Part shown: positions 2,211 to 62,671 of the stretch, piece after piece
Layout: every line of letters starts with the position of its first letter
Position numbering within the stretch: the first letter of the stretch is position 1
The notes under the pieces: generated by a model
What the model saw: the letters and a program-made list of their open reading frames with translations, nothing else
What the model was told of the DNA's origin: nothing
Databases searched by the model: none
Program-made: the position numbers and the translations under genes
DNA from: Eledone cirrhosa
Taxonomy: Eukaryota
Direction of reading: 5' to 3'
DNA length: 64,000 bases
Assembly: GCA_964016885.1 (NCBI GenBank)
Contig: OZ024748.1
Location: 59,706,001-59,770,000, forward strand

Positions 2211-2212
<2 letters not shown>

Positions 2213-2655
2213 CGATATTAAATAAATGGAAACTATATTTATAAAACCATATTTATTTCATTATATATATTTCAGGGATATCATATTAACAATATGTTAT
2301 GCCTTCCTCAGACAAAATACAATATAGACAGTTTTATAGATAAATAGATTTGACATACCGTTCAACATCGACTTGTATTTGAAAAAGTTGATTTTTTCAA
2401 ATACAAGTCGATGTTGAACGGTATGTCAAATCTATTTATCTATAAAACTGTCTATAATGTATTTTGTCTGAGGAAGGCATAACATATTGTTAATATGATA
2501 TCCCTGAAATATATATAATGAAATAAATATGGTTTTATAAATATAGTTTCCATTTATTTAATATCGTAAATATACTCCAAATACTTGTTGAGTGCTTTTA
2601 TATCAGTTATAAATATTTACTAGTTGTAACCCAACAATTTAAATATAACTTTCTA
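2211..2655 (+). mobile_element. Penelope-like pseudo-LTR relic with a 176-bp-arm foldback
   Basis: Arms at 2211-2386 and 2393-2568 (one mismatch seen, 6-nt loop), with a hammerhead in each arm and (TA)n on both sides. Homologous to 48800-49055 and 61379-61722. Confidence 0.65.
2460..2525 (+). ncRNA. Minimal type-I hammerhead ribozyme motif (family A), with a mirror copy on the - strand at 2254-2319
   Basis: Helix I TATTTTGT/ATGAAATA, CTGAGGA at 2468-2474, helix II closed by AGG/CCT, GAAA at 2506-2509, palindromic TATATA, UH = TA. Confidence 0.72.
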
Positions 2656-3248
2656 TATATATATATATATATATATTAGTATTGGTGGTCTGAAATAGCG
2701 ATGTATACATGTATGTATAGTATATTTGGCAATATACTGTATGTTTAATTAAAAACATTTAGAAGACCATTCGCTATGAGTTTTAAAATAGTGACTATGT
2801 CACTTACTTATCCTCGGCAAATAACATCAGAGATCACTCTTTGATGTTATAAACATACAGTATATTGCCAAATATACCACACACATACACGCACGCACTT
2901 CACTTTGGGTTCCAAAATCGTTACCAAGACTACCTAACGGTTTGTATTGTTAGTATATACACTCTGCCTATGTATCGATTGTTGCTTTTATTGGTACCAC
3001 CTCCAGATATTCACTGAATCACAAACACTATATATATTTACACACACAGATACATACCAACTATTTTGTTTAGTCCAGGCCAAATTGTTTACACCTGTAC
3101 ATAATCCATCCCGAACTTACCACTAATAACTAAATGTGTACGCTCTGAATCACGGGACTGGCACTTCGGAAGTGCAAGTCCCGTGAATTCATTGAGCGAG
3201 TGTGAAAGTTCAAATTACTAGCACAAACTCAGTTTGTCTTGTTCGATA

Positions 3249-3287
<39 letters not shown>

Positions 3288-4858
3288 GTGTGTGTTTTAG
3301 CATATTCTTCTTCAGAGCGTAATCTCTCTTACAGTAGCACAATATTATTTTTTCGTTCCGCCATTTTGAGTGTGTAGGCGATAGAGTAAACGCTGTGGGT
3401 AGCCATTACTTTCCACGAAATAATTATAAAACACCGTTAAACTACACTTCTATCTTCTAGGCTATAAGGTATACAAACACATACTGCTCGAACTTTCCTC
3501 GCAGGGGCCGTTAGCATAATTTCCTGTTTATGTCAGCGGGAGATTTTCCCCCAACTCATCAAAAAATAGAAAAACAACAATTTCAACAGACCAAGTGAAT
3601 AGATATACAATGTCTCTTTTTTTACAAAGAAGGTGCAAGCATGGCTGTGTGGTTACAACGTTCGCTTCGCAATCATGTGCCTTTAAGTTCAAACTTCTAA
3701 AGAGTTTCGATCCATCCAGTTTACTTTCATAAAAACATTCGGGTCAACCAGACGTTAGTGGTGGCACTCATTGGGAGCGACCCAGGTTCTTCTGATTGCT
3801 TAGCGAACCCTTTAACTACATATGTGTGTACACATGCGTGTGTAAGGTTTATCACGTGTGTTTGTATAAATGACTTGATGCCAGCTCTATGAACTCTAGT
3901 GTAATATTATGAACAAGCGAGACAATAAGAAGCACTGTGTTGTTTTATTAACAAGTGAGGCGATATCATCTTTAAAAAAATGTTTTGTTTTTAGCTAATG
4001 TTTTCATCAATTGTAAAACAATCGAGTTTCTGTTGCTTCATAAATATTTAAAGCGAGGAAACAAAGAATTCATTTGGTTATTTCGGATGACCAATTCCAA
4101 CACTGCAATTTGTTTTCCACACCGTCTTTTATGTCAAAGCAGGAACAGACATACTTCCAGTGAATAATTGGTAGAATTATTTGAAATTTGCGACAACCAA
4201 AGTTGATAATATCAAGCATCCTCTTTCTACTAGAAGTTACAAAATTTATCATTTTCGTTAAAAAAGAAACAAAGAATATCAAAACAATTCTTTGAAACAT
4301 CATCAGACAATGTTGGGTTACTTTAATGTGTCTAATTAATTTTAATTTTACTATAATTTCAAATTTAAACATTTATAGTTTATATGGAACATTTTGAAGT
4401 ATGTGGGTAGAAATGTTTTAGGAAAGCTAGTGCAATACAAGATAGAAAACCAAAAGTAAAGTAAAACAAAATTAAACAAATCAACAGTTTATATTTTATA
4501 TTCTTATGGTATAGAATATTTCGGAGATACACCCTCTTTTCAAAAGTAAGGAAATGGAGTGTAATGGTGATAGAAAGCGTATTCTTTAGAATTATAGGTC
4601 CTTACCCGAAATATATGTCTGAACTGTTGTTTTTTGTTGTTTTAGTTTTAAAATTCTCTCTCTCTCTCTGAATATATATATCTCAAATCCTCCATCTCGA
4701 TTCCACTTTTGAAAAGCATAAGAACCGCGAAACCAGTAAAGGAACCAAATAAATATTCTTAAAAAGACTCCAGTTGCATTTTCGATTTCATCTTTTTTCC
4801 TTATACTTTCACTCGTGTAGGACATCTCGTTTTTTTTTCATTTTGGAAAAAAACCCTC

Positions 4859-4907
<49 letters not shown>

Positions 4908-5095
4908 ATCCATTTTATGTACGCTAATTCACGTTTATATAAAGTGTATAGATGTTTTCCGAATTTCAACAAATCTTGCCTTTCCTAAAACCATGTTCAT
5001 CTATACAGACACACAGAGACCCACACATGTATATGCAACTGTATGCGTGTGTACGGATATATATATATATATATATATATATTCTTTTCTTTGAT

Positions 5096-5278
5096 AATTG
5101 TTTCTACTTTTGGCACAAGGCCAGTAATTATCCCAGTGCATTACTGGTACTTTATTTTATCGACCCCGTAAGGATGAAAGGCAAAGTTAATCTCGGCGGG
5201 ATTTGAACTCAGAATGGCACGGGCCGCTAACTCTATGCGTCAAAGCATGGCGTCCGACCCTCTACCGATACTGCCAAT
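5096..5278 (-). mobile_element. tRNA-derived SINE (dominant family); partial copies at ~1285-1365, 2085-2183 and 6077-6139
   Basis: Reverse complement of 12052-12236. Confidence 0.88.
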
Positions 5279-6000
5279 TGATAATGAAGATACTGTAACA
5301 AAGTCCACATTAAACAAATGTGATACTATAGTGTATGTTTGAGGGTGAGGATGTATTGACATTACTTCAAAGTTATATATATATATAATGTATAAATATG
5401 TTTGTATGTATATGTGGCTATATATATATATATATATATATTTCTGTTTATGCGTGGGGGTGTGTGTATATATATGTAAGCATATGTTTGTGTTTATGCG
5501 TGGGTGTGTGTATATATGTTTGTTTATGCGTGGGTGTGTATATAAGTATATAATTATATTATATATAATATACGCACGCACGCACGTACGTACGTACGTG
5601 TGTGGTGTGTAAGTATATAATATATATATGTATATATATATAAGCCAATAATTCTTGTCACTTTCAATAGAAAGCTTGTTTTAATAACGAGTATGTTTCT
5701 ATCTAGGCTGAAGGTTAGATCACGTGTTTGTGGTAGCTCGTGCTATATTTTCTTCCGAATGTTTTTGAAAATCAACACTTAACTTCATATAAAGGTTTAG
5801 CTGTGATCTTTCATCTTGCAGGTAGATACTTTAGTAAGCCGGCTTTGATCAGATGTAATAACGTTTTTTTTTTTTAGTATGAACTATTACACACCTGCAA
5901 ATATTTTTAGCAAAACACACAAAAATCTACCTTTTCTCTCTCTAGTATTCTCTCAAAGATAAATGTTTGTTTGTGTATGTATTTTGCTAGGAATATTTGC

Positions 6001-6057
<57 letters not shown>

Positions 6058-6292
6058 ATTAAAAACAAATCCACGCTACTTTATTTTATCGAATCCGTAA
6101 GGATGAAAGGCAAAGTTAACCTCGGCGGGATTTGAACTCGTATATAGGAAAAATAATAATGAAGGGTTGAAGATGCATCTATCTTTTAATATATACATGC
6201 AAATTTACTGTGCACAACGAAAAAAAAAAATATTATTTGTTGTGGATGGGGATTTACTGAAAGAATCATGGTTATCTCATTTCTTTGATTTT

Positions 6293-6330
6293 ACTAACCG
6301 GTTTCTGCTCTCGCGAGCTCTTCAAGAGCG
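6293..6330 (-). ncRNA. Degenerate hammerhead-like motif
   Basis: Minus strand reads CGCTC TTGAAGA GCTC-GCGA-GAGC A GAAA CCGG TT AGT, with a GNRA-capped helix II and palindromic ACCGGT. Confidence 0.45.
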
Positions 6331-6739
6331 TAATTTTCAAGGTTACATTTGTGCTAGTGTTATCTATTTTTCATATACTGTAATTTTCTGTCCCATTTCT
6401 AAACTTTGCTTATGTCTTTCAAATCAATCTATTAAACGCCACTTTGGCACAACGAACCTACTCGTGTTACTTCCGTGCAAATATAACTCCAATGATTTTG
6501 AAGGGTCTGATTGATTTTTACTTTGTCTTGTACAGTGTGTGTCTGGTGAGCGGGACGGCTGAATATAGGTTTATGGATTACGCGGATAGCATCAGCTTGG
6601 TGTAGATTTATTTAGATTTGTTTACACTGAAGTTGGGCAGCTGACTGTTACATACGCACATACATACATACATACATAGTTATATGTAAATATATATGCG
6701 TCTGTAATTAAAGGCACACACACACATATATATATATAT

Positions 6740-6924
6740 AATTGTTTCTACTTTTGGCACAAGGCCAACAATTATCTCAGTACATTACTGGTACTTTATT
6801 TTATCGACCCGGTAAGGATGAAAGGCAAAATTAACCTCAGCGGGATTTGAACTCAGTTTGTAAAGAGACGTAACTATGCTGGAAAGCATGGCGTCGAACC
6901 CCCTACCGATACTGCCAATCCACC
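6740..6924 (-). mobile_element. tRNA-derived SINE (dominant family)
   Basis: Full-length match to the family consensus. Confidence 0.88.
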
Positions 6925-7574
6925 AATGAAAATAAAAGTTACGGGCAAAAGAGGGCAATATCCATCGTCAGTTGTCTGCTAGGAATCATAGGTATTTCTT
7001 CGCGTTAGAGACAAGATACCTCAGCCTAGGGCGAACATTGACGAAAATAAGTTATTGGGATAAAAAAGGGGAGAGAGAGAAAAAAAAATGTAAATAGACA
7101 CGAAGTGTGAAGCAACGAAAAGAGAGGAAAAAAAATATATATATAACAAAGAAGGTGTGGTAAGATACCAGGTGGACCCTAACGCACCCGAGTACTCATT
7201 ACTAGGGTAGTACAGTGGGTAACAGGAAATTAATCAGGACCCCGAAACGGCTGGAGCTCAGCTATCGGGGTCCTGACTCTTTTCCTGTATATATATATAT
7301 GTGTGTGTGTGAATGTGCATATATATATATATATATATATAATGTGTGTGTGTGTGTACACACACACATATATATATATATTTGTGTGTGTGTATAGAAA
7401 TATAAAGAGATGTCCATTAATCAATTCTGTAAGATTTTAAAGTTTGTGTTTTTTTTTTGTATTTGTTATTGTCTGTTTTTTCACGTGGGCTAATATGTTA
7501 GGATATTTACAAACCTGAAGTGGGCCCTATATTGACAATTTTAGGTTTATTGGCTCAAAGGTGCACGTGACATC

Positions 7575-8250
7575 TTTACCAACGCTGAATTGCAACACGT
7601 GACCAATGTATTGTGTCACCTGAGCAACGGTGAATTGTGATGACAGACTAACGATGTGGTGTAACACGTCACCAATATTGAATCGTCACCTGACCAATGA
7701 CGTATGGTGACACGTGACCAACACTAAATCCTCACCTGACCAATGACGTATTGTGACACGTGACCAACACTAAATCCTCACCTGACCAATGACCTATTGT
7801 GACACGGCCAACACTGATTCGTCACCTGACCAATGACGTATTGTGACACGTGACCCACACTGAACCATCACCTGACCAATGACGTAGTGTGCCACGTGAC
7901 CAACACTGAATCGTCACCTGAACAATTACGTATTGACACGTGACCAACACTGAATCGTCACCTGACCAATTACGTATTGACACGTGACCAACACTGCATC
8001 GTCAAACTGAGCAATGACGTATTGTGACACCTGAGCAACACTGAATCGTCACCTGACCAATGACGTATTGTGACACGTGAGCAACACTGAACCGTCACCT
8101 GACCAATGACGTATTATGACACGTGGCCAACACTGAATCGTCACGTGACCAATGACGTATTATGACACGTGACCAATGATGTATTGTAACACGTGACCAG
8201 CGCTATACCGTGACTACTGACCAACGCTGAATTTTGACACGTGACCAACA
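7575..8250. repeat. ~41-42 bp minisatellite built from two ~21-bp subunits
   Basis: Unit ~GTCACCTGACCAATGACGTATTGTGACACGTGACCAACACTGAATC, about 14-16 units. Confidence 0.9.
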
Positions 8251-8605
8251 TTTTATGCTAATTGCATAACACTGTGATAATCTTCCGGATTCGTCCAATT
8301 CGTAAAAAAATGCTGGAAAAACGGACGTGAAATGGTGAACTCATTAAAATATCAAATATGGACGGAAAGGAGGAATATTTGAACCGTGGAAGGATATGAG
8401 TGAAACAAAATGGAGTAAATGTAACTAACCTTCTCTTTTAGAGAGTAATTATTGAACTGAAGGGGAGATTATTAGGAAAGGCTAACGGCATAATACACAC
8501 ACTGAGGCACAGATATATGGGAAAATAATTCAAACTCAATTAAAAAAAATCAAGACAGATTTTATCCACAGATTTTGTGAAATCCAGGGAAAAACCAATA
8601 GTCTT

Positions 8606-8651
<46 letters not shown>

Positions 8652-8965
8652 AGAGAGAGAGAGAGAGAGAGAGAGAGACGAGCGCGTATTTATGTGTGAA
8701 TGTAAATAGGTATGATGGTGTGTGTATAGATAGGTTGGTGGGTATGTGTGGGTATAGATCGGTTGGTGGGTATGTGTGTGTATAGATCGGTTGGTGGGTA
8801 TGTGTGTGTGTGTATAGATAGGCTGGTGGGTATAGATCGGTTGGTCGGTATGTGTGGGTATAGATAGGTTGGTGGGTATATGTGTGGGTATAGATCGGTC
8901 GGTGGGTATGTGTATATATATGTCTGTGGGTGGGTGGGTATCTTTAAATCCAGGATGTTGTCAGT

Positions 8966-9015
<50 letters not shown>

Positions 9016-11233
9016 TATATGGGGAATATTTTATGTGAATTGTTCGAGTGATAAACATGATAAATCACCTCACGTAGAGGATATGTCTTAAAAATACAAT
9101 TATACCTCAACAGAGGAATAATGACGTCATAGAGGAGAGGGCCAGAACATATGACACCACAGATATCATAGTCGTCATCATTGTCATCATAGTCGTCATC
9201 ATAATCATCATAGTCGTCATCATAGTCGTCATCATAATCATCATAGTCGTCATCATAGTCGTCATCATTGTCGTCATCATAGTCATCATCATAGTCATCA
9301 TCATAGTCATCATAGTCGTCATCATAGTCATCATAGTCGTCATCATAGTCATCATCATAGTCGTCATCATAGTCATCGTCTTACTTCTCCTCTCATCGTT
9401 ATTATTGTCATCATCATCACCATCATGATGGTCATTATGGTGATAAGGATGATCGCCGTCGTCATCATGATCATCTAACGGTCATCATCATCCATCATTA
9501 TCATCATCATCATTATAACCACTATCATCATCATCATAATTAGCATCATTATCACCATCGCCCTCCTCTTCATCGTCATCATCATCATCTTCACCACCAC
9601 CATCATTCTCAACATCATTATCATCACGATCACCGCCACGACCACCACTGTACCATCACCACCACTGTACCACCACCACCATCACCACTGTACCACCACC
9701 ACCACCACCACCACCATCACCACCACTGTACCATCACCACCACCACCATCACCACCACTGTACCATCACCATCACCACCACCACTGTACCACCACCACCA
9801 CCACCACCATCACCACCACCACCACCACCACCACCACTGTACCATCACCACCACCACCACCACCATCACCACTGTACCATCACCACTGTACCACCACCAT
9901 CACCACCACTGTACCACCACCACCACTGTACCACCACCACCACTGTACCACCACCACCACTGTACCACCACCACCACTGTACCACCACCACCACCACCAT
10001 CACCACCACTGTACCACCACCACCACCACCACCACCACCACCACTGTACCACCACCATCACCACCACTGTACCACCACCACCACCATCACCACCACCATC
10101 ACCACCACTGTACCACCACCACCACCACCACCATCACCACCACTGTACCACCACCACCACCACCACCACCACCATCACCACTGTGCCACCATCACCACCA
10201 CTACCATCACCACCACTGTACTATCACCACCACCATCACCACCACCACCACCATCACCACTGTGCCACCACCACCACCACCATCACCACCACCACCATCA
10301 CCACCACTGTACCACCACCACCACCATCATTACTATGACCAAGCCACAGGAGTTGAGCCACAGTAAAACCAAAGTAATATCTTATTACGGAAGGTATAGT
10401 CATTATATTACTATATTATATGACATTATATTTATGACTGTGCGTGAATCTCATAGTTTAGTGGAATAGTCTTGTCCATGATAGGCATGCGTCGTATACG
10501 AGATTGTTTTCTGTCAAGTAGCGTGTTCCATGTAGATTTATGCAGATGGAGGTGAAAGGTTGATTTTCTAAACTAAAGAGCAAAATTCTATTTCGGGTTT
10601 TATTGTATGTCAGAAGATGGTCATGTTATATGTTATATATTTATGTTATTCAACTCCAGACTGCAGATGTGCCAAGTTTCTTACATCTTACTGGACACTC
10701 AGTTACAGATGTATGCCAAATATGTATGTATATTCGTGTGTGTATATATATATATAATGTGTGTGTGTGTGTGTATATATATGTGTGTGTGTATATATAT
10801 GTGTGTGTGTATATATATATATGTGTGTATATATATATTTGTGTGTGTATATATATATGTGTGTGTGTATATATATATGTGTGTGTGTATATATATATGT
10901 GTGCGTGTATATGTATGTGTGTATATGTGTGTTTGTGTGTATATATGTGTATGTGTGTGTATATATATGTGTGTGTGTGTATATATATGTGTGTATATAA
11001 AAATGTATATATATATGTAACTATATTTATATATATATATATACACATGTGTATATAAAAAAATATATATATATGTAACTATATTTATATATATAGACAC
11101 ATATGTGTGTATATAAAAATGTATATAAATATGTAACTATATTTATATATATATAGACACATGTGTGTGTATATAAAAATGTATATATATATATATAAAC
11201 ATGTGTGTATATGTATATATAGATATGTAACTA

Positions 11234-11274
<41 letters not shown>

Positions 11275-11285
11275 GTGTGTATATG

Positions 11286-11343
<58 letters not shown>

Positions 11344-11388
11344 AGAAAAAGATGTGAGAAAAACCACAGACCCTCCATCTCAACTCTA

Positions 11389-11424
11389 CTTTTGAAAAGC
11401 AGAAGAACTGCGAAACCGGTAAAG
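11389..11424 (+). ncRNA. Hammerhead-like motif with U3-A8 core variant (family C); homolog at 4706-4741
   Basis: CTT TTGAAAA GCAG-AAGAA-CTGC GAAA CCGG TA AAG. It lies within a dispersed repeat (4690-4868 and 11372-11563) that ends at (TA)n. Confidence 0.55.
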
Positions 11425-11563
11425 GAATCAAATATATATATATATTTTTAAAAAAAATAAGACTCCAGTTGCATTTTCGATTTCATCTTTTTTTCTTTAT
11501 ACTTTCACTCGTGTAGGACACCTCGGTTATTTTTCATTTTGTAAAAAAAACCTCACTTTCTAA

Positions 11564-11605
<42 letters not shown>

Positions 11606-11640
11606 ATAAAATGTATATATATATGAAAATGTATATGTAA

Positions 11641-11681
<41 letters not shown>

Positions 11682-11750
11682 CACATGTGCATATGCATAT
11701 ATATGTATACACACACAATATACATACATACCCACACACATACAGTCACA

Positions 11751-11787
<37 letters not shown>

Positions 11788-11791
<4 letters not shown>

Positions 11792-11952
11792 GTTTCTACT
11801 TTTGGCACAAGGCCAGCAATTACCCAGTGTATTACTGGTACTTTATTTTATCGACCCCGTAAGGATGAAAGGCAAAGTTAACCTCGGCGGGATTTGAACT
11901 CAGATCGTAAAGGGACGTAACTCTTTGCGTCAAAGCATGGCGTCCGACGCTC
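11788..11952 (-). mobile_element. tRNA-derived SINE (dominant family)
   Basis: Family match; head-to-head with the copy at 12052. Confidence 0.88.
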
Positions 11953-12051
11953 TATATTTATCCAAGATACTACGCATTTAGATAGAACACTGAACAAATT
12001 GGTTGTGAAACGAACGTCTTAACCAAAAAGCCATCAATTGTATTAGTAATA

Positions 12052-33034: not shown

Positions 33035-33680
33035 GTTTTCTCTTTCTCTTAATTTCGAGTATATTTTTTTGACCGGCCACCTTCCTGGTGGCAAGGTTGT
33101 AAAAGAAAAGAAATTGTCATCCCTTGAATCGCAAGAATGTTTTGCAAATTTTGAAGGTGCCAGCTATCGCAGCCTTTTGTAGACTATGAATTAGGGAGCT
33201 GCGCTTTTTGTCCACAAATCCAAGTTCAGTCATACTTTGGTCCAAGCGGGTTGGTATATAACCCGTAGCACCAATAATGATGGGTATGAAGCTAAAGGTG
33301 TATCTTGGATACTGGATTTGTAAACTCCTCATCAATGGTCCGTAGATGTCCTCCTTCTCCTGTATTTTTCTGACAACGTTTACATCAAGTGGGCAGCTGA
33401 TCTCCACAACAGAACACGTTTTCAATGTGTGGTCCCAAACTACAATATCAGGCCGGTTGTGCTTTAATTTGGTGGCAGTTTTTATTTTCAGGTTCCACCA
33501 GTATTCCTTAGTGCCATCTGTCTCAATATATTCTTCCTCGTTTGTTGTTAATTTTGTTTTCCGAAGTGCGTTCCAGATGGTTCTAGCTATCCCATCGTGT
33601 CTCATGGGGAGGTAGTAGCGAGATGACATTCTTTCGCAGCTGGCAACAATGTGGCTTACATCCTCGATCTTTGTTTTACA
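33035..33680 (-). mobile_element. 5'-truncated R4/Dong-like non-LTR retrotransposon with restriction-like endonuclease
   Basis: Translates as [15 protein letters not shown] (partial CCHC knuckle), then RHD, RPDIVVWD, VEISCP, EKEDIY and PIIIGATG. The 3'UTR has hairpin GCCACC-AGGAA-GGTGGC. It lies inside (TA/TATG)n. The clade call is from motif style only. Confidence 0.82.
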
Positions 33681-34361: not shown

Positions 34362-34396
<35 letters not shown>

Positions 34397-34401
34397 TATT
34401 A

Positions 34402-34440
<39 letters not shown>

Positions 34441-37400
34441 TTTTCCCAATTCAATGATGTTCCAGAACAATGTAAACGAGATAATTGCCAATTTGGGTTC
34501 TGGAACAAAAAGGATCATTGGCAATAAGGGCAGGGGCCCCAAGTTATCACAACCTGGGCCCGCCCGTCATCGTGCCATTGTAATAGAGCCAAACAGGGCA
34601 TTTAGTCTTGGCTGCTGGAACGTACGGACGCTGCTTGACAGGGATTCTTTGGAGCGTCCTGAACGAAGGACCGCTCTTGTTGCGAAGGAGCTTCGACGTT
34701 ACGATCTTGACATCGTGGCTTTGTCTGAGACGAGGTTAGCTGGAGATGGTCATCTTACGGAATTTTGTGGAGAATATACATTCTTCTGGAAAGGAAGAGA
34801 TGAAGGAACCAGAAGAGAGGCTGGGGTAGGATTTGCTGTTAAGACTGTACTGGTGAATAAATTGGAAGAATTCCCAGTGGGGATTAGTGAGCGTCTTATG
34901 TCCATGAGAGTTCCGCTGGACAAGGGAAGATATGCTACCCTGGTGAGTGTGTATGCTCCAACTATGAATTCTGTCGATGAAGAAAAACTGTCCTTTTACC
35001 ATGCCTTGAAAGGTGTTTTAAGAAATATCCCTCAGGCAGACAAAGTCATCGTGCTTGGTGACTTTAATGCTAGAGTGGGTAGGGATTTTAACACATGGAA
35101 TGTAATCGGAAGGCATGGGGTGGGAAAGTGTAACAGCAATGGTATGCTCTTGCTGCAGATGTGTGAGGAGCTGGATCTGTGTGTTACCAACACCATGTTC
35201 CAACAAAAGAACAAATTCAAGACCACATGGATGCATCCTGCATCTAAGGAATGGCATCTTTTGGACTACGTCCTAGTCAGGATGCGTGACAGACAGGATG
35301 TGCGGTGTGTTCGTGTTCTTCGTGGAGCTGAGTGCTGGACGGACCACCGCCTGGTACGCGCAAAAGTGAATCTAATCACCAAACGTAAAATCCGGGCTCC
35401 TGGTGTTACCCTGCCCAAAAGATTGAATGCTGCTCGTCTTAAGGATAAAAATGTGAAGAGGACATTGGAAGAAGAGATGCAGGCTGCAGATCTTGGTGAG
35501 GATTGGCCGACCCTTAAAAAGTCGGTTTATGATGTAGGCAGACGTGTTCTGGGATTGGTGCAGAGAAAACATCAGGACTGGTTTAATGAGAAAGATGTGC
35601 ATATAGATGACTTGTTGGCTGATAAGAGGCGCGCTCTGTCACGCTACTTGACGGCAAGACCACAGGAGAGGAATACGTTGCATGAGGAGCTCAGGGATGT
35701 AAAATCACGTGTTAGGCGGAGTCTTTCTCAGATGAAGGATCAGTGGTGGAGTGAGAAGGCTGGTGAGATACAAACTGCGTCTGATTGCAATAACACAAAG
35801 CTGTTGTACAGTCTCTTGCGTGAGGTTTATGGACCGTCTTCTTCTCTGGTGACACCGATTCGCAGCAGGGATGGCAAAGAACTTCTTCGTGACTCACAGG
35901 GAATTCTACGAAGGTGGCGGGAGCACTTTGATGATCTTTTGAATCAGCCGTCTGTCGTCAGTGAAGATTTCCTCAATCTCATTCCGGAAAGTCCTGTGAA
36001 AGTAGCTCTCGCAGAGCCTCCGACACTTGTGGAGGTTGCAGTGGCTATTTCGAAGCTGAACAGTGGAAGATCTCCAGGTATGGATGGCATACATGCTGAG
36101 CTCCTACAATATGGTGGTGAGAGACTCCTGCAACATCTTCACTCTCTGTTTGGAAGGATATGGGCTAATGAATCCGTGCCTGAGGACTGGAGAGATGCAG
36201 TAATGGTGGTCTTGTACAAGGGAAAGGGTAACAGGAATGATTGTGGGAACTACAGAGGTATATCATTGCTTTCTGTCGTGGGGAAAGTTTTATGTAGGGT
36301 GCTTCTGGACCGTCTGCTGACACACATTGCAGATTGTGTCCTTCCTGAAAGTCAATCTGGTTTTCGTGTTGGACGCGGCACTACTGATATGATCTTCTCA
36401 GCTAGACAGCTCCAGGAGAAGTGCATTGAACAGGGCTTGGATCTGTATCAGGTTTTTGTCGATCTGACAAAGGCTTTCGATACTGTCAACAGAGATGCAT
36501 TATGGAAGGTTCTCCAGAAACTTGGTTGCCCTGATAAGTTCCTTGCTTTAGTTAGGTCTTTCCATGACGACATGAAGGCTTGGGTTAATGTCGGAGGTAG
36601 CATGTCGGAGCCTATCTCAGTAAAAAATGGAGTGAAACAGGGGGATATTCCAGCACCGACCCTGTTTGCCATATACTTTGCAATGGTTTTCTGTATTGCA
36701 TTCAGGAATTGCGAGCATGGTGTTTACATCCGATATCGAACCTCAGGCAGCATATTTAACATCAGGCGCTTTGCTGCGAAGACAAAAGTATTTACATCAG
36801 TCATAAGAGACCTCTTGTATGCAGATGATTGCGATCTTGTAGCGCACACAGAGAGTGATATGCAGCACATTTTGAATGTATTTTCTGACGCTTGCACTGC
36901 CCTGGGTTTGGCTGTCAGTCTCAAGAAAACCGTCGTCATGTACCAACCTGCACCTGGTGGGCAGTACACTGAACCAAACATCTATGTGTATGGCAAACGA
37001 CTTGGAGTGGTTGATCAGTTTGTCTACCTGGGAAGCACTGTCAATCGATACGGCAACCTTGACAGTGAAATCTCACTTAGGATTAGGAAAGCAAGTGATG
37101 CTTTCGGAAAGCTAGAAAGGCGACTCTGGGGTCGGCGAGACATATGCAGGAGGACAAAGGTAAAGGTGTACAGGGCATGTGTACTCTCTTGTCTTCTTTA
37201 TGCCTGCGAGACCTGGGTCACATATCGACGCCACCTTAAGCAATTGGAGCGTTTCCATCAGATGTGTCTCAGACGGATACATGGCGTTCGCTGGAGGGAC
37301 CACATCAGTGATGTCGAGATTTTGGAAAGCTCTATGTGTGACAGTATAGAAGCTCTTGTGCTTAAGCAGCGACTCCGTTGGAGTGGTCACCTTGCCAGGA

Positions 37401-38007
37401 TGAAGGATTCTAGAATACCAAAACAACTCTTCTATGGAGAGTTGGTTAAAGGAAAACGACCGCCACATAAACCAAAAAAGAGGTATAAGGATTCCTTGAA
37501 GGCCTCTCTGAAAGACGCTAACATCTCTGCTGATACATGGGAAAATATTGCTGCTGATCGTAATAAATGGAGAAAGACTGTATATGAGGGAAAAGTTGCC
37601 TTTGAGGCATCTCGAATCGCACACGAGAAAGTAAAGCGGGACGTGAGGAAGGGTATTGCTGTTGCACTTCCAGACGGCGAGGGTCCTCCTATGTTTCTGA
37701 CATGCAGCGTCTGTGCGAGACTCTGCCTAAGCAAAGCTGGACTCGAAAGTCATCTTCGCAGTCATAAAGTAAGACCAGTGGTTGACTACCAGGCTGCTGT
37801 TGGAGATGCTACTCATCATGCTTGCCAAACATGTGGTAGAGAATGTAAATCAGCAGGAGGACTCAAGCGACATGCAAAAGTACACGAACTCCAACCACAG
37901 CCGACTATTCCCAGTAAATGTTTTGGTTGCCGACTCTGTGCAAGACATTTTGGATCATTGGCTGGGCTAAAAAGCCACATTCGATCGCAGCACTGTTAGT
38001 TGCTATC

Positions 38008-48732: not shown

Positions 48733-48788
<56 letters not shown>

Positions 48789-48854
48789 CATATTCTCTCC
48801 AACCGGTAAGATATGATTTTCATGGGTATGTCTCTATTTATAAAACAAACTTTG

Positions 48855-48919
48855 TATTTTATCTGATGAAAGCGTACCAATGTTGTCTTGGTCACCCTTG
48901 AAATATATATAATAAAATA
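48855..48919 (+). ncRNA. Minimal type-I hammerhead ribozyme motif (family A)
   Basis: Perfect helix I TATTTTAT/ATAAAATA, CTGATGA at 48863-48869, helix II AAG..ACCAA/TTGGT..CTT, then GAAA-TATATA-TA. Confidence 0.8.
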
Positions 48920-49053
48920 AATATGTTTTTATAAATATAGTTTCCATTTATTTAATATCATTGAATATTTACTCCATTTTCTGTTGAGTGCTTTAAATCA
49001 GTTAATAAGCATTTATATTTGTCGGACTTGCAACAAATTAAATACCACTTCTA

Positions 49054-49089
<36 letters not shown>

Positions 49090-49092
<3 letters not shown>

Positions 49093-49283
49093 CAAAGAAG
49101 GTGTGGTAAGAAACAAGGTGGACCATAAAGCCCCAGAGTACTCGATACTTAGGGAAGTAGAGTGGGTAATAGGAAAAAAATCAGGAATCCGACGGCTGAG
49201 CTCTGGCCGCTTCGGCAGCTACTAGTTCCGATCTAGCTGTCGAAACGACCGGAGCTCAGCCGTTGGGGTCCTGACTCTTTTCA
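49090..49283. mobile_element. Short hairpin-forming dispersed element; copies at 7145-7287 and partly at 61795-61835
   Basis: Shared AACAAAGAAGGTGTGGTAAG...TCAGGA...GGGGTCCTGACTCTTTTC. Long imperfect hairpin at 49181-49274. (TA)n flanks. Confidence 0.7.
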
Positions 49284-49320
49284 TATATATATATAAAACA
49301 CACACACATACATACATATA

Positions 49321-53057: not shown

Positions 53058-53101
<44 letters not shown>

Positions 53102-53166
53102 CACACATACATGCGTATGTATGTATGTGTGTGTGTCTCTCTCTCTCTTTCTCTCTCTCTCTCTTA

Positions 53167-53216
<50 letters not shown>

Positions 53217-53838
53217 CACACACACACACACACACATCGATGCCTACATGTTTGGTGATCTGCAATAGATTATATGTGGACTTGAAACAGGCTGACTGAT
53301 TCATTGATTGGCTCAAATCAATCATAATCAAACTCCGCCTGCCGTAAATCAATATGATCTGCCCTGATCGATATTTCAATATTGACACCAAAAACGGTGT
53401 GAATTTCAAATACACCTGAGCAAGTGACATCGTTAACATCACCTGTAGTGGTGGTGGTAATAGTAGTGGTTGTAGGTAGTGGTGGTGATGGTCGTTTGGG
53501 TGGTAGTAGTAGTGGTAACAGTAGTAGTAGTGGTAACAGTAGTAGTAGTGGTAGTAGTGGTGGTGCCAGTAGTAGTAGTAGTGGTAGTAGTAGTAGTAGT
53601 GGTGGTAGTGGTGGTGGTAGTGGTGGTGACAGTAGTAGTGGTGGTAGTGGTGGTGCCAGTAGTAGTAGTGGTAATAGTAGTAGTAGTGGTGGTGACAGTA
53701 GTAGTAGTAGTGGTAGTAGAAGTAGTGTTTATCTGTGATGTCAAATGGTTTCATCAATTATCTTGTTCATTGATTTCCATGGAAACGGTTCCATAGTAAC
53801 GAATGATCAATACAATTTGGTAATTCTCTCTCATTTCA

Positions 53839-53870
<32 letters not shown>

Positions 53871-54593
53871 CCACTTCACCCCCCTCTCTCTCTCTCTCAC
53901 TTCACCTCTCTTTCTCTCTCACTTCACCTCTCTTTCTCTCTCTCTCTCACTTCACCTCTCTCTCTCACTTCACCTCTCTCTCTCTCTTCACCTCTCTCTC
54001 TCTCTCACTTCACCTCTCTCTCTCTCACTTCACCTCTCTCTCTCTCTCACTTCACCTCTCTCTCTCTCTCACTTCACTTCACCTCTCTCCTTTCACCTCA
54101 TCCTCTCTCTCCTTTCACCTCCCCCTCTCTCCTTTCACCTCCCCCTCTCTCCTTTCACCTCCCCCTCTCTCTCTCCTTTCACCTCTCCCTCTCTCTCCGT
54201 TCACCTCTCCCTCTCTCTCCTTTCACCTCTCCCCCTCTCTCACTACACCTCCCTCTCTCTCTCACTACACCTCTCCCTCACTACACCTCTCCCCCTCTCT
54301 CTCACTACACCTCTCCCCCTCTCTCTCACTACACCTCTCCCTCTCTCTCACTACACCTCTCTCTCTCACTTCACCCCTCTCACTCCCCTCTCTCAATCCA
54401 CTTTTCTTTCCCTCTCTCACTCACTCCACCTGGGTCATTCCACCTCTCTCTGTGTCCCCTCGCTTTCTCTTTCAATTCCTCTGACCCTCTTCTACCTCCC
54501 TCCCTCCCTACCTACCAACATCTATCTATCACTCTCTCACACACTCTCTCTCTCACACACACACTCTCTATCCGTCTCTCCCACACACACACA

Positions 54594-54625
<32 letters not shown>

Positions 54626-54703
54626 TATTCTCGCACACACACACTCTCTACCCGTCTCCCCCCCACATACACATATTTACTCTCTCACTCACATATTTAC
54701 TCT

Positions 54704-54735
<32 letters not shown>

Positions 54736-55189
54736 CTCTCTCACACACTCTCTTTTTCTCTCACACACTCCCTCTCTCTCAATCTCTTTCTCTCAGTCTC
54801 TTTCTCTCAGTCTCTTTCTCTCAATCTCTTTCTCTCAATCTCTATCTATCTATCTATCTATCTATTCTACCTGTTATGTTTTCAACATGTATCACCTTAT
54901 CACTCTCCCTATTCCCTTCTGCTATGTTTACCTGTCACTGTACCTGTACACACCTCCAATCAATGTTTCAATAGCTTATTCTTGTCTCACTACCACGTGA
55001 GAAAACGTCACTGATGACGGACACCAATCAAGAAATATTAACATTAAGCTCATCATCAGCTCCACCATCACACATATCACCCCACCTCCAACACCTGCAC
55101 CAACATTAATTACTATTACACCACCACCACCATCTCCATAACCTACATCAACATTAATTACTATTACAGCCAACACCCCCAGCACCACC

Positions 55190-56748
55190 ACCGAGACTAC
55201 CAGCACCAACACCACCACAGCCAAGACTACCAGCACCAACACCACCACCACCAAGACTACCAGCACCAACACCACCACCACCAAGACTACCAGCACCAAC
55301 ACCACCACAGCCAAGACTACCAGCACCAACACCACCACCACCAAGACTACCAGCACCAACACCACCACCACCAAGACTACCAGCACCAACACCACCACCA
55401 CCAAGACTACCAGCACCAACACCACCACAGCCAAGACTACCAGCACCAACACCACCACAGCCAAGACTACCAGCACCAACACCACCACCAGCAAGACTAC
55501 CAGCACCAACACCACCACCACCAAGACTACCAGCACCAACACCACCACCACCAAGACTACCAGCACCAACACCACCACAGCCAAGACTACCAGCACCAAC
55601 ACCACCACCACCAAGACTACCAGCACCAACACCACCACAGCCAAGACTACCAGCACCAACACCACCACCACCAAGACTACCAGCACCAACACCACCACAG
55701 CCAAGACTACCAGCACCAACACCACCACCACCAAGACTACCAGCACCAACACCACCACAGCCAATACCACCAGCACCACCACCAATACTACAGTACCAGC
55801 ACCACCACCAAGACTACAGTACCAACACCACCAACAACACCACCACCAAGACTACCAGCACCAACACCACCACAGCCAATACCACCAGCACCACCACCAA
55901 TACTACAGTACCAGCACCACCACCAAGACTACAGTACCAACACCACCAACAACACCACCACCAAGACTACCAGCACCAACACCACCACCACCAAGACTAC
56001 CAGCACCAACACCACCACAGCCAACACCACCAGCACCAGCACCAAGACTACAGTACCAGCACCACCACCAAGACTACAGTACCAACACCACCAACACCAC
56101 CACCACCAAGCCTACCAGCACCAACACCACCACCACCAAGACTACCAGCACCAACACCACCACCACCAAGACTACCGGCACCAACACCACCACCACCAAG
56201 ACTACCAGCACCAACACCACCACCACCAAGACTACCAGCACCAACACCACCACAGCCAACACCACCAGCACCAGCACCAAGACTACCACCACCAAGACTA
56301 CCAGCACCAACACCACCACAGCCAACACCACCACCACCAAGACTACCAGCACCAACACCACCACCACCAAGACTACCAGCACCAACACCACCACCACCAA
56401 GACTACCAGCACCAACACCACCACAGCCAACACCACCAGCACCAGCACCAAGACTACAGTACCAGCACCACCACCAATACTACAGTACCAGCACCAGCAC
56501 CAAGACTACCAGCACCAACACCACCACCAAGACTACCAGCACCAACACCACCACCACCAAGACTGCCAGCACCAACACCACCACCACCAAGCCTACCAGC
56601 ACCAACACCACCACAGCCAACACCAACACCAACACCACCACAGCCAACACCAACACCACCAGCACCAACACCACCACCACCAAGACTACCAGCACCAACA
56701 CCACCACAGCCAACACCACCAGCACCAGCACCAAGACTACCACCACCA
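55190..56748. repeat. 30-bp minisatellite derived from (ACC)n
   Basis: CAGCACCAACACCACCAC(CA/AG)CCAAGACTAC; near-perfect for ~19 units, then degenerate. Confidence 0.92.
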
Positions 56749-56823
56749 ATGCATGTATACGTACGTATATGTACGTATGTACGAATGCATATATATGTAT
56801 ATATATATATATATATAATGGGG

Positions 56824-56866
<43 letters not shown>

Positions 56867-57202
56867 AGTGTTGTGTACATAGGTGTATGTATGTTTGGCT
56901 GTGTGTTGTTGCATGCATGTGTTTGTATGTACATATATGTATATGTAGATAACACACAAGAAATGACGGAATCGTGCTAGGACATGCGTCAAATGCACAA
57001 ATCCCCAGAATATTCAACGTTCACTGATCAGTTAATAAGACGGTTTGTCACGTATGTATACACACATATACATACATAAACACATACATACACACAGCAT
57101 ATACACACACACACACGCGTATATATATATATACATATATATATATATACACACATACACACATATACATACACACATATACATACATATATATATATAT
57201 GC

Positions 57203-57241
<39 letters not shown>

Positions 57242-57947
57242 TATACAAACATACATATACACACACTTATACATATATATATATATATATATACATACAC
57301 ACATACATATATATATATATATACAAACACATATACACATGTACAAATATACATATACAAACACATGCAAATAAGCACACTCACACATACATATATATAC
57401 GTATGCTCACACACAGGCACATACACAGGCACATACACATATATATATATATATACGTACATCCATCCATCCATACACACAACCACATTCATTTATATAT
57501 ACATACATATGTCAGAAAAATAAGATTGTGTAGGACAGAACAAAGGAGAGACACAAAATAACAAATTAGGCGCTGAGGAGGTTACAGAATGTGTGACGAA
57601 AGAACTTTGACAGTAAATAAACTATCCGGTTATTAAATCAACCAACTGGAAATTTGTAATAAATTGAAGTGTCCTGATGATTTCTTACAGGGATGTATGG
57701 CAGAATTGAGCAGACATACAGGGATATGGGGTGGGGCATTGATGTCTCTATTATATAAAATATATCCATATTTATGATGATATCGTATGATTTGAAGGAG
57801 ATTTGGCTGCTATTTCATGCTTCCTCATAACGTTTGTAGGTGGCGTTGCTGTTGGTTTGTAGATGACATTGTCAACTACAGTAAAGTTACTGCTATAGCT
57901 ACGAGAGTCGGTTGAAAAGTTCATATGCTGACTAAGATACTCTAATG

Positions 57948-58232
57948 CAGTCAAGGGCAACCTGCGGCTCGCAAAGCTTTCTGAATGGCTCGCCTAAGTC
58001 ACCTAAGTGAAATCGTTCTGATTTTTTACCCAAAACCTTTGTCGTAATTTATCTTTCTGATATTTTTACGATCGAGGACAACAACGTGTACGAATTCTGA
58101 AGAAACAAATCAAAACAAACTGAGTTACCACCCCTTTAATGTGGGCATGAATGTAAGTTAGCGCTGGCGGCCCGCCTGAAGATGAATCATATCTCATGCT
58201 GCCCGCTTCTCGAAAAAGGTTGTCCATGCCTG
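57948..58232. mobile_element. hAT (Charlie-like) non-autonomous element nested in the mariner-like MITE
   Basis: TIRs CAGTCAAGGGCAACCT and AGGTTGTCCATGCCTG (13/16 match). Flanks CTCTAATG and CTCTAAGA. Confidence 0.6.
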
Positions 58233-58383
58233 CTCTAAGATACTCTAATGGAAGGTGACCAAATGAGGTTTATTTTTCAACATAGTCCACCTTTGCGGTC
58301 CACTTCTTCCATCGGTGTTGCAGTGTTTGTATCTCATTGGTGGAAAAACTTTCATCCTGTTGGTAAAAAAAAGTCATCAATAT

Positions 58384-58588
58384 TGGTTTCTTATATAGGC
58401 ACAAGGCCAGCAATTTTGGGGGAGGAGTAAGTCAATTAAATCGACCCCAGTGAGTGACTGGTACTTTATTTTATCGACCTTGTAAGGATAAAAGGCAAAG
58501 TTAACCTGGGCGGGATTTGAACTCAGATCATAAAGCGCCGTAACTCTTTGCTGCAAAGCATGCCGTCCAACCCTCTACCGATACTGCC
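58384..58588 (-). mobile_element. tRNA-derived SINE (dominant family, longer subfamily)
   Basis: Full-length family match. Confidence 0.85.
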
Positions 58589-59454
58589 TAACATTAGATA
58601 TGACTCTATCATCACTGCGATACTGGTTTCCAGCCAAGTATTTTAGTTAATATATCACTACGTGCTCTAGTAGGCATGGTAAAATTAGTTCCGTAGCTTT
58701 AGTGAAGTAGTAAGTGGTGTATTATTTTGTATAGCACTTCTGGTAAAGCAGGATAAGATCATACAGTAACAGTAAAAACCATCTTGGTTATGTCTAGATA
58801 TTTGGTCATGTTGTATGACTTTCTCTGGACATTGCTTTAAATGCCAAGTTAACCAATATTTGTTCTTTTTGGCCACTTATATATTGTCATTGCGATTCTC
58901 AAGAATTATTTCCTATGGTCCCTTATAGTTGGCTGGTGAAGTAGTAGAGTGGTTAGAGCGTTATATAGAACTTCTTTTCCCAGTTTCCTTCTGGCTCCAT
59001 GTTCTGTGCTTGCTCTGTATCGTGTTCGAATCCCACGGGTGGCAATTTTACCTTTTGTTCTTTCAATACTGATAAATAAAGTACTAGTCCAGTCCCATTC
59101 TCGGGTCGATTTTTCTCTCTAGAAGAAATCATTGTTATTAGATGGAGGAGGTATGAGCTACACAAGGTTTAAATACCTGGCGCGACGCTTCAGCGACTCC
59201 GTCGTGAGTTGTAGTCCCCCAATCAAGATATGTTGAATTATGTGTTCCCTCGTTAAGTCATATACACACTTCATGACGATTCCGTTAGGCACTGAATGAA
59301 GTCACCTAAGGGAAATATACATTACACCATACAACATATACAATATCCCTTCCATTAATATAACCCTTAGTTATATTAAAGGTGTAGGTCAGAATTGAGG
59401 AAGCTTTTCATGTTGAAAGGCCGTATTAAGTTATTTGTAATATAAGGCCGCATT

Positions 59455-60200
59455 CAACAAGACCAGCAATTTAAGGGGGATGGAGGAAAGTCGATTAAAT
59501 TGATCCTAGTGAGTTACTGGTATTTTATTTATCGACCCCAGAAAGATGAAACACAAAGTTGACCTCACCAGAATTTGAACCCAGTCTGTAAAATTCCAGA
59601 ACAAATGTCGTGAAGATGCAGCCACTCCAACACCATAATTTATACTATAATAATTGTTTCTACTTTAGGCACAAGGCCAGCAATTTTTAGGGAAGGGGAA
59701 TGTCGATTAAATCGACCCCAGTACGTTACTGGTACTTTATTTTATATCGACCCTGAAGGATGAAAGGCAAAGTTAACCTTGGCAGGATTTGAACTCAGAA
59801 CGTAAAGGACCATAACTATATGTCGCAAAGCATATTATCCGACACTCTACCGATTTTGCCAAACCACAGCCCTAAGGCCAACAATTAAATAGACCGACCC
59901 CAGTGCGTTACTGGTACTGTATTTTATCGCCCCCGTAAAGATGAAAAGCGGAATCTGAACTCGGTAGGTAGAATTCCGGAACAACCGCCAAGAAGCTGCC
60001 ATTCCAGCGCCATACTTTACACTATAATAATTGTTTCTACTTTTGCAATTATCCCAGTGCATTACTGGTACTTTATTTTATCGACCCCGTAAGGATGAAA
60101 GACAAAGTTAACCCCGGCGGGATTTGAACTCAGATCATAAAGGATCGTAATTCTAAGCTGCAAAGCATGTTGTCTGACCATCTACCGACACTGCCAATCC
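59455..60200 (-). mobile_element. Cluster of about 4 same-orientation SINE copies; further degenerate copies at ~63485-63722
   Basis: Family matches near 59455, 59652, 59870 and 60028. Confidence 0.8.
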
Positions 60201-60751
60201 AGCGCCATACTTTACACTATAATAATGCTATCAACTTTTACACAACAAACAATAGAGCAGCTAAGGCCACCTAAAAACAGTGTATTTTATAAATATTTCA
60301 TATATAAAAGGTGGGCGGGTGAGGGGGGGGAGGGGTAGACAGGAAGTTCCCTGACGTCTCATGATCAGCTTGGGTAACCATTTTACTGTAGAAACATTAA
60401 GTGGATTTGTACAGTTAAAGTGCGTATCGAAAAACAGGAACTGGTTGGACGCACAGACACACACACACACCAACACACACACACACACACACAAGCATTC
60501 GCACACACAGACACACGCGCAAACACACACAAGCATACATGTGTACGGACACACATACACACACACCAACACACACACACACATGCATTCACAGACACAC
60601 ACGCAAACACACAAGCATACGCGCATACAGACACACACATACACATCCACATACACCAACACGCACACACACATACTCACACACACAGACACTCACACAA
60701 GCGCACATATACATTCACACAACACACACACACACATACACAAACACACGC

Positions 60752-60849
<98 letters not shown>

Positions 60850-61080
60850 GCATATACCTATACAATCGCATAGATAACTACACACACCTACATATGCTTA
60901 TATATTCACGCACGCACACATGCACACACCCACAAACACACGCCTACTTATGCTTGTAGAATCATGTACACACAGACACACAGTAAAGTAGTGTTATACT
61001 GACAAACACAAAACCATTAATTCATATACTTACATACATGGAGACAAGCATACATTCATAAACATGACTAGGTGTTTACG

Positions 61081-61112
<32 letters not shown>

Positions 61113-61408
61113 TACACATAACTATATATATATATATATATAGTTATTGTTGCTACCTTTTCAGATACATTATAGAGATTTATCGCTACTAAACCAGGAA
61201 CAAATACTAATTTTAGCTCAGTTTTATTAAAACATTGTAACTTCATGTTTAATTTTCTGTTATTGTTATTTCTTATTTCTAATTACACATTGTTGTTGTT
61301 GTCGTTGCTGCTGTTGTTGTTGTTATAGTCTATTTACATATTGTTCTTTTTGCTTCTATATTTCTAATAAACTCCTATGAATGGAAAATATTTTTTTAAA
61401 ACCATATT

Positions 61409-61469
61409 TATTTTATTATACGTATTTCAAGGGTACTAATATTTTAGTACGCTTTCGTCAGATAAAATA
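61409..61469 (-). ncRNA. Minimal type-I hammerhead ribozyme motif (family A)
   Basis: Minus strand reads TATTTTAT CTGACGA AAG-C-GTACTAA-AATA-TTAGTAC-C-CTT GAAA TACGTA TA ATAAAATA. Confidence 0.82.
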
Positions 61470-62671
61470 TAATAATAGGTGTAAAGATAGTGACATACCT
61501 TCATGTGAACTTCATGTTATAAGATCAGTGAAGATAATGAATATAATTTTTCAAAACTCAGGGGGATATGCTAATGAGTTTAACGTTGAAAGTGAAAAGG
61601 TCCGTTATGTTTAGACGCTAGATAGATTTTAAATATTTATCCTAAAATATTACTAAAATACTAGTACCCTTGAAATACGTATAATAAAATAAATATGGTT
61701 TTATAAAGATATTTTCCATTTATTAATATTATTGATATTAATTATACTTCGGATAAGTTCAGCCAGACTACTGCTGTGCTAACAATACTGCGTTAGCTGT
61801 CGAAACGGCCGGAGCTCAGCCATTGGGGTCCTGAAATTCTTAACAATACTAATTACACAATCTTGTACGTTGTTACACTAATCACGAGTCAAACACAGCG
61901 CCACCTATGGTATAACAACAATAGATAATATAACGACACATGTAAAAATCTCATCGCCAAACTATTCATACAGTTTCTAGCCGTTGTCGATAGTTTATCA
62001 ATAAATCGAAGACATTGATCAAGTCTTCAGTAGTTTTTTTTTCTACATCAACGAGATACCACGGGATATGAAATAAAAATAACAAAACTAAAAAATTACC
62101 CAAAATATCAAAAAATAATAAAAATAATAAAAATAACAAAAATATGAAAACAACCACAATAACAACAACAAACATACAAAAAAGGAAGAATACTTTTAAT
62201 CCTAGAATATAATGTAGTTAAAACCGTTGTTAATGTTTACCCAGGCGCCATTTTTAGTGATGTTTGATGAGAATGTTAGTGATAAAGGAAAGTAAATAGC
62301 CATTGATGTTTTGGCGAGATTTTAGCTTCAAAATCTTCAACATCGTTTAACAAACCTTTATTAAGTTCTAATGAAAAATATTGATTTCGATGGCAAGATA
62401 TTATACCAATAATAGCAACTGTATTAATAACAAAAATATTAATAACAAAAATATTAATAGTTAAAAGAAAAAACCCACCACAAAATAAAACAGCTGCAAC
62501 AACAACAGCAACAACAGTAAATAACAACAGGAAAAATAGCAATAGCAATAACAGCATTACGGTATAATACCAGTTACACACACATACACACGCACACGCA
62601 CAGACGCGCACACACATATATATACATACATATATAGTTAAAGAAACAACACAGTCTTATTAGTATCATGG

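Follow-up and report, generated by a model that had tools for sequence, protein, structure and literature searches.

Hammerhead motifs and the elements that carry them

The subject of this analysis is a 64,000-nt stretch of the Eledone cirrhosa genome (GenBank assembly GCA_964016885.1, contig OZ024748.1, forward-strand positions 59,706,001 to 59,770,000; hereafter the window), in which three small elements carry type I hammerhead ribozyme motifs. A descriptor scan of the whole window yields four such motifs, against a mean of 0.025 (loose descriptor) or 0.005 (strict descriptor) in 200 block-wise dinucleotide shuffles of the window. Three of the four are those that an earlier reading of this sequence (the original prediction) had placed at 2460, 48855 and 61409, and their helices and predicted cleavage sites were recovered exactly as given there; the fourth, on the minus strand of element 1, had been overlooked, and owes its presence to the structure of this element, an inverted repeat of 182 nt with arms at 2205-2386 and 2393-2574. 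No hammerhead appears among the 150 listed of the 619 Rfam matches to the whole window or among the 3 matches to element 3; the listed matches are microRNAs only, driven by microsatellites and below the gathering score.

Elements 2 and 3 each share 75-78% identity with element 1. The second element, a single long-tailed copy between TA runs, has no inverted arm. The ribozyme-bearing piece of element 3 ends 41 nt past the cut site and is not flanked by (TA)n, so that the (TA)n association originally proposed for all three holds for elements 1 and 2, and for the targeting in general, but not for element 3, which most likely represents an interrupted back-to-back pair whose ribozyme-bearing part is the inverted arm of the insertion. 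No head-to-tail arrays occur at the element sites in the window, and a tblastn search of the window for an open reading frame (ORF) of a Penelope-like element (PLE) came back empty.

The elements as ends of autonomous Penelope-like families

So where do these elements come from? The answer is suggested by copies fetched from elsewhere in the genome (designated here by L-numbers; all genome-wide counts refer to the whole 3.0-Gb genome). The element 1 copy at L013 continues directly into an ORF. At L031, the order is (TA)n, an inverted 1.2-kb arm, a short pseudo-long terminal repeat (pLTR) with hammerhead and tail, an ORF with one frameshift, a 1.2-kb 3' untranslated region (UTR), a second hammerhead, a tail and (TA)n, whereas L056 retains an intact 741-aa ORF between two hammerheads. 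The full-length order in family 1 is thus pLTR, 741-aa ORF with reverse transcriptase (RT) and GIY-YIG endonuclease (EN) regions, 1.2-kb 3' UTR, hammerhead, tail and (TA)n. Among the fetched top EN matches (the best 20 of 130 listed), all 20 have a family 1 hammerhead about 1.2 kb past the stop codon, as read from the printed 3' ends rather than by the strict scan, which missed these motifs because the basal pair of helix II is A.A there. For family 2, L127 contains RT-thumb and EN ORF fragments with 57-58% identity to the L056 protein, and the stretch of this locus from ORF to hammerhead is common to L131 and L132; the ORF at L126 (31-36% to family 1) was rejected as a family 2 partner, not being contiguous with other family 2 copies. 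For family 3, six loci (L121-L125 and L128) have 2-2.6 kb in common, ORF fragments at 42-72% included; both L124 and L128, which were compared with element 3, carry such fragments.

The copies have common 3' ends and differ in their 5' ends, whose distance upstream of the hammerhead ranges between a few and 1,255 nt. Taken together with the continuity between these 3' ends and ORF-bearing elements, this variation indicates that the window elements are truncated ends of three autonomous families. Our main conclusion, to which we assign a probability of about 0.85, is that they are the 5'-truncated 3' ends (pLTRs) of three related autonomous PLE families of the Hydra clade, and that every one of them bears a minimal type I hammerhead for which cleavage is predicted solely in dimers or when protein assists. 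The Penelope-like origin envisaged in the original prediction is thus borne out, and the copies joined to an RT plus GIY-YIG ORF that it proposed to look for do exist. Its further assumption of a single, non-autonomous or retrozyme-like family finds no support: each element has a longer counterpart of its own, which it matches at the 3' end with 88-94% identity and which bears an RT/EN ORF or fragments of one.

These families are abundant. One hammerhead pattern has 47,484 exact matches genome-wide and a second, with a TGCGCA helix III, has 20,421, with none for either reversed control; for one subfamily, exact full-length leaders number 29. The TGCGCA pattern belongs to a further family with a long helix II (L193-L200) that is absent from the window and has Hydra-like ORF pieces nearby at 4 of 8 loci. 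Elsewhere (L203/L204, L220 and L224), full-length units stand head to tail, an arrangement in which a transcript could include two hammerheads, for dimer formation.

The protein and its clade

The Hydra clade has been defined by the motifs RW(K/R) and DKT, a CxCX5C linker, C-terminal CxxC and CxH, and the lack of GxKF/Y, and its members, among them the octopus family Hydra-1_Obim, carry hammerheads and occupy (TA)n targets (PMC8557442). The L056 ORF conforms to this definition: it combines YRDD in the RT with RWR at 37 (R for the K of RWK) and DKT at 120, has CNCRDRSKC (CxCX5C) at 600, CDLC (CxxC) at 698 and CRH (CxH) at 725 in its C-terminal half, and contains no N-terminal GxKF/Y. The resemblance to the published clade extends to the hammerhead near the 3' end, the (TA)n targets and the inverted 5'-truncated copy and, by eye, to the stretches SDKTNNLY, GLYRDD and VNFLDVTL of the Hydra-1_Obim protein (PMC8557442 and its supplement). 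A single ORF with an RT and, C-terminally, a GIY-YIG EN is the organization of EN-containing PLEs; the partial copies in tandem and the inverted ones truncated at the 5' end, with their tail on one side, are those of pLTRs, and the hammerhead resides in the pLTR at all 20 EN loci and in both copies of L056.

Profile searches yield fainter signals. The RT shows a weak match to a retron RT profile (E=0.007), and a homologue, P0008, matches RVT_1 in Pfam at E=9e-6. The EN region has Atlas matches at 0.95 to GIY-YIG clusters, with PF01541 on 34% of the members of one cluster, and reads RYNNH where canonical ENs have EH (by eye, unaligned); a further trait of the Hydra clade is that its EN lacks the CCHH motif. 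The only named homologues are Argonauta hians proteins, at 37-42%. We assign the ORF to the Hydra clade by its motifs and by-eye similarity.

Selection on the ribozyme fold

For the analysis of core conservation, copies were anchored on the flank and helix I only, which retained 193 of 207 (14 without the 5' strand of helix I were dropped). None of the 11 core columns has a variant in at least 4 of the 193 copies, N7 is occupied by all four bases, and helix and loop II have recurrent variants in 22 of 31 columns. The exact core with only N7 free, as originally claimed for three elements, is found across the families. A fixed core combined with a free N7 is the signature of catalysis. Of the cells in 23 representatives chosen by hand, 97.3% are paired, compared with 31-63% in slid controls, and double changes occur at 8 of 18 pairs (2/500 shuffles), although these counts come from related sequences rather than independent events and are inflated by relatedness.

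Each of the three helices deserves comment. In helix I, pairing is kept, as originally noted, but the changes between the elements are one-sided (G.U/U.G versus A-U/U-A) and not compensatory. Helix II was parsed in 127 copies (190 rows minus 40 out of register and 23 that had been selected on the core; the flank-anchored set was run in their place for the core test). Its sequence differs while its pairing is kept, in line with the earlier description, except that it is longer than 3 bp and extends beyond a conserved C.C mismatch (118 of 127 copies; C.U in some families). Helix III is self-complementary in all types (TATATA, TATGTA, TACGTA and TGCGCA), and its octamers are related by double changes: AUAUAUAU, AUAUGUAU (by wobble), AUACGUAU and AUGCGCAU. 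Its inner pairs are impossible within one strand; the self-duplex is predicted at -3.2 to -10.5 kcal/mol, whereas a monomeric helix III costs 2.9. Self-complementarity is thus kept as action in dimers would require, which fits the dimer model of PMC4209133. The palindromic helix III and the minimal type I form, with a conserved core and three helices that show covariation, stand across families. Judged from these patterns of change, the hammerhead structure is under selection while the elements are mobile, as the original prediction held on the narrower basis of three copies, and the changes point to a ribozyme that likely works in pairs.

Two further candidate structures were discarded. The 3' cleavage product (+1 to +50) does not behave as a selected hairpin ending at the short terminus, given z-scores mostly at or above 0 and folds that do not agree between families; an inhibitory hairpin that is predicted to cover GAAA and helix III is not kept, by eye, in family 3 or in the TGCGCA family, and is not claimed.

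Two fixed ends and twin bulged hairpins

The 3' ends of 195 copies are distributed bimodally: 105 are short, with a mode at 48-52 nt past the cut site, 81 are long, with a mode at 140-144 nt, and 9 are unassigned. A TA run or TA-like sequence starts at one of these two distances in 186 of the 195, as is characteristic of the Hydra clade. Of 47 back-to-back pairs, 44 consist of a long copy and a short one, the inverted arms ending at the nearer point, and element 1 is such a pair. A bulged hairpin (hairpin 1) lies about 6-9 nt past the short end in 94 of 96 long-tailed copies (permissive pattern, no null); in 16 representatives its pairing reaches 99%, and double changes affect 3 of 7 pairs, a number that does not exceed shuffles (69/500). 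In L031 and L056, a second hairpin follows 92 nt beyond hairpin 1, starting 8 nt after the long end and 40 nt short of the ATG. The spacing of the hairpins equals the length of the tail. Both copy ends are upstream of the ATG, and each is followed after 6-9 nt by one of the repeated bulged hairpins.

Every copy spans the cut site, which implies that its template was uncut or re-joined RNA. The possibility of exact unit-length copies made from a circular template was considered and rejected: the 5' ends of the 29 longer-than-unit copies are scattered, and 9 lie at +100 or later, three of these being identical duplicates. Three full-length copies (L212, L205 and L213) have their start at the long end, or no more than a few nt from it, and are near one unit in length, too few for a circular template.

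A possible mechanism

These observations would be accommodated by the following scenario. The element protein may nick (TA)n on both strands and, with uncut RNA as template, initiate reverse transcription at two internal points. These would lie about 50 nt and about 142 nt 3' of the cut site, each of them just 5' of a bulged hairpin that is a putative binding site of the protein. Two internal starts on two nicked strands, as shown for the anole element, would explain the long-plus-short pairs by analogy. The RT would usually fall off early and leave short ribozyme-bearing stubs, often as such pairs. In the master lineages the hammerhead would be kept functional, probably processing tandem transcripts via an 8-bp intermolecular helix III, while most integrated cDNA would be made from RNA that is uncut, or re-joined, at the hammerhead site. 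In its full form, which we regard as an evenly balanced proposition, this scenario presents the 3' module of the Hydra clade as a three-part RNA machine: a dimer-obligate hammerhead with a self-complementary helix III, in which families numbering tens of thousands of copies show natural, compensatory double changes (AUAUAUAU, AUACGUAU, AUGCGCAU), together with twin bulged hairpins that would set two start sites of a telomerase-related RT, one per target strand, and would account for the long-plus-short insertions.

Alternative explanations

Could the short elements instead form a separate non-autonomous family, retrozyme-like or SINE-like (short interspersed nuclear element), that is moved in trans by PLE proteins? 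Such stubs far outnumber the long copies (47,484 hammerhead matches against 29 exact full-length leaders of one subfamily), some of them could be transcribed and re-mobilised, and vertebrate retrozymes have been argued to derive from pLTRs (10.64898/2026.07.22.740005). We nevertheless consider this improbable: the 5' ends are variable, the sequence upstream of the hammerhead is the 3' UTR of ORF-bearing elements, and the window sites lack the head-to-tail organization of metazoan retrozymes, which are tandem repeats with canonical hammerheads (PMC7229834). A non-LTR retrozyme proper, that is, head-to-tail non-coding units of 170-400 nt with a hammerhead in each, was not found. Still less credible, to the point that we treat it as refuted, is a miniature inverted-repeat transposable element, that is, a DNA transposon with terminal inverted repeats inserting at TA, which the original prediction had named as an outcome fatal to its case. 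Although elements 1 and 3 are hairpin-like and TA flanks are common, the arms vary in length, are asymmetric with a one-sided tail, are missing in element 2 and are built from the 3' end of an RT-encoding element; the copies are contiguous with an RT/EN ORF and have neither symmetric terminal repeats of fixed length nor a uniform size.

A more serious contender, if still an unlikely one, leaves the PLE identity unchanged and holds that the hammerhead fold no longer cleaves, being kept as an element for RT-protein binding or dimerisation. This is where the observations that speak against our conclusions have to be weighed. The 3' flank, which was not selected in sampling, is nearly as conserved as the core (recurrent variants in 5 of 26 columns), such that some of this conservation may be owed to the binding of protein and not to catalysis. 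The basal pair of helix II (10.1/11.1) is broken by A.A in 28 and by A.C in 11 of the 127 parsed copies, including a subfamily with intact ORFs, and these mismatches may reduce or abolish ribozyme activity. Structure prediction gives a minimum-energy fold other than the active one, with a helix I pair probability of 0-0.02 in context. Of the 29 longer-than-unit copies, none has its start 15 nt or less from the cut site, and 17 extend across a second intact site; this agrees with the anole element, where ribozyme mutants had no effect on in vitro insertion and the cut site was not the end of any RNA read (PMC11167929). In addition, families 2 and 3 are known from fragmented ORFs only, and Pfam reports nothing for the family 1 ORF itself. 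On the other side, the 11 core positions are fixed, with N7 free, across families whose flanks and helix II have been rewritten, and the anole hammerhead, which requires protein for cleavage and is dispensable for insertion in vitro, does cleave when the protein is present (PMC11167929). On balance, we favor the reading in which the ribozyme would still be functional in the master lineages of these PLEs. As a separate observation, A.A or A.C at the basal pair of helix II recurs in the amplified subfamilies (L035-L054, L005 and L017), including those with intact ORFs.

Comparison with known systems

Earlier publications cover the hammerheads in the pLTRs of PLEs, the Hydra clade itself and a Hydra family from octopus; what is new are these particular families. 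They are distinct from Hydra-1_Obim, whose published hammerhead has other helices (PMC8557442, File S2); here, helix III is an even 6-nt palindrome closed by A-U and helix II contains the C.C or C.U mismatch. The unit is about 3.7 kb with its 1.2-kb 3' UTR, compared with generally less than 3 kb in the Hydra clade, and the tail is about 90 nt where 30-40 bp have been stated for PLEs (PMC8557442). With the minimal hammerheads of PLEs (PMC4209133) they share the type I topology, the palindromic helix III, the prevalence of single motifs from truncated elements, opposite-strand pairs 100-700 bp apart, family-level covariation and the proposed action as dimers; in that study, monomers did not cleave and dimers cleaved at a low level. 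They differ in the basal pair of helix II (A-U, A.A or A.C in place of a conserved G10.1-C11.1), in a helix I of 8 bp rather than 4-5, and in number, with more than 67,000 exact matches to two patterns against 2,000-9,000 per genome (PMC4209133).

The anole element, Poseidon of Anolis, is similar in its AT-rich targets, in uncut RNA as the dominant template and in two internal RT starts downstream of the hammerhead that define the tail, which for the present families is our reading of the copy ends (PMC11167929). There, however, the hammerhead overlaps the start of the ORF and initiation takes place in an AC-rich stem-loop, whereas here both ends are upstream of the ATG beside the repeated hairpins. 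Metazoan non-LTR retrozymes (PMC7229834; 10.64898/2026.07.22.740005) likewise consist of a non-coding stretch with a type I hammerhead and are related to pLTRs, and abundant circular RNA is a further mark of non-LTR retrozymes; by contrast, the present elements show no tandem units and no fixed monomer and are contiguous with an autonomous ORF. The accessible portion of the repeat annotation of Octopus vulgaris (PMC13282606) names Penelope-like families and mentions neither hammerheads nor the Hydra clade. No paper came up that deals with these families in particular or with twin hairpins, in a search that covered a small part of the subscription literature; supplements of preprints could list related families.

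In broader terms, natural covariation in several diverged families supports the long-proposed dimer model, and two fixed ends beside twin hairpins yield a direct prediction on the choice of internal start sites by a telomerase-related RT. An intact ORF and its cognate RNA are at hand for in vitro work.

Features of the window and neighboring repeats

Table 1. Hammerheads, element parts and flanking (TA)n tracts in the window
Feature	Position	Strand	Remarks
(TA)n target remnant left of element 1	2184-2212	.	
Element 1, inverted arm (5'-truncated pLTR copy, stops at short 3' end)	2211-2386	-	1 mismatch in 176 nt to direct copy
Fourth hammerhead	2254-2319	-	Core start 2311; predicted cleavage after 2262
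Element 1, direct copy (family 1 Hydra-clade PLE 3' end, long tail)	2393-2653	+	88% over 264 nt to full-length L056; 90% over 237 nt to L031
Hammerhead 1	2460-2525	+	Helix I 2460-2467/2518-2525; core CUGAGGA 2468-2474; helix III octamer AUAUAUAU; predicted cleavage after 2517
Tail between short and long 3' ends, direct copy only	2569-2653	+	
Bulged hairpin 1 of element 1	2574-2595	+	6 nt past short end
(TA)n at long 3' end of element 1	2654-2676	.	
(TA)n left of element 2	48737-48789	.	
Element 2 (5'-truncated family 2 3' end, long tail, no inverted arm)	48798-49055	+	94% over 272 nt to L127 3' end
Hammerhead 2	48855-48919	+	Core CUGAUGA from 48863; predicted cleavage after 48911
Bulged hairpin 1 of element 2	48971-48991	+	
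(TA)n at long 3' end of element 2	49056-49090	.	
Element 3, ribozyme-bearing piece (family 3), likely inverted arm	61377-61657	-	91% over 282 nt to L128; 90% to L124
Hammerhead 3	61409-61469	-	Core CUGACGA from 61461; helix III AUACGUAU; predicted cleavage after 61417
Element 3, partner	61651-61756	+	Starts inside helix II (no CUGANGA), enters tail start, then another repeat

Other repeats occur in the window. A TA run within a common, dispersed repeat (2100-2182) is the insertion site of element 1; this repeat is present at many loci, and we take it to be a SINE. An uninterrupted 1,211-aa frame of a long interspersed nuclear element, presumably RTE-like, occupies 34364-37999 on the plus strand and encodes an apurinic/apyrimidinic endonuclease, an RT and C-terminal C2H2 fingers. 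A 187-aa fragment at 33117-33680 on the minus strand, for which Pfam gives no match, resembles the C-terminal zinc-knuckle and restriction-like endonuclease of R2/NeSL-type elements. Finally, a short hairpin-like repeat adjoins elements 2 and 3, at 49169-49286 (53-nt arms, 81% complementary) and at about 61757-61835, and recurs at many of the fetched loci.

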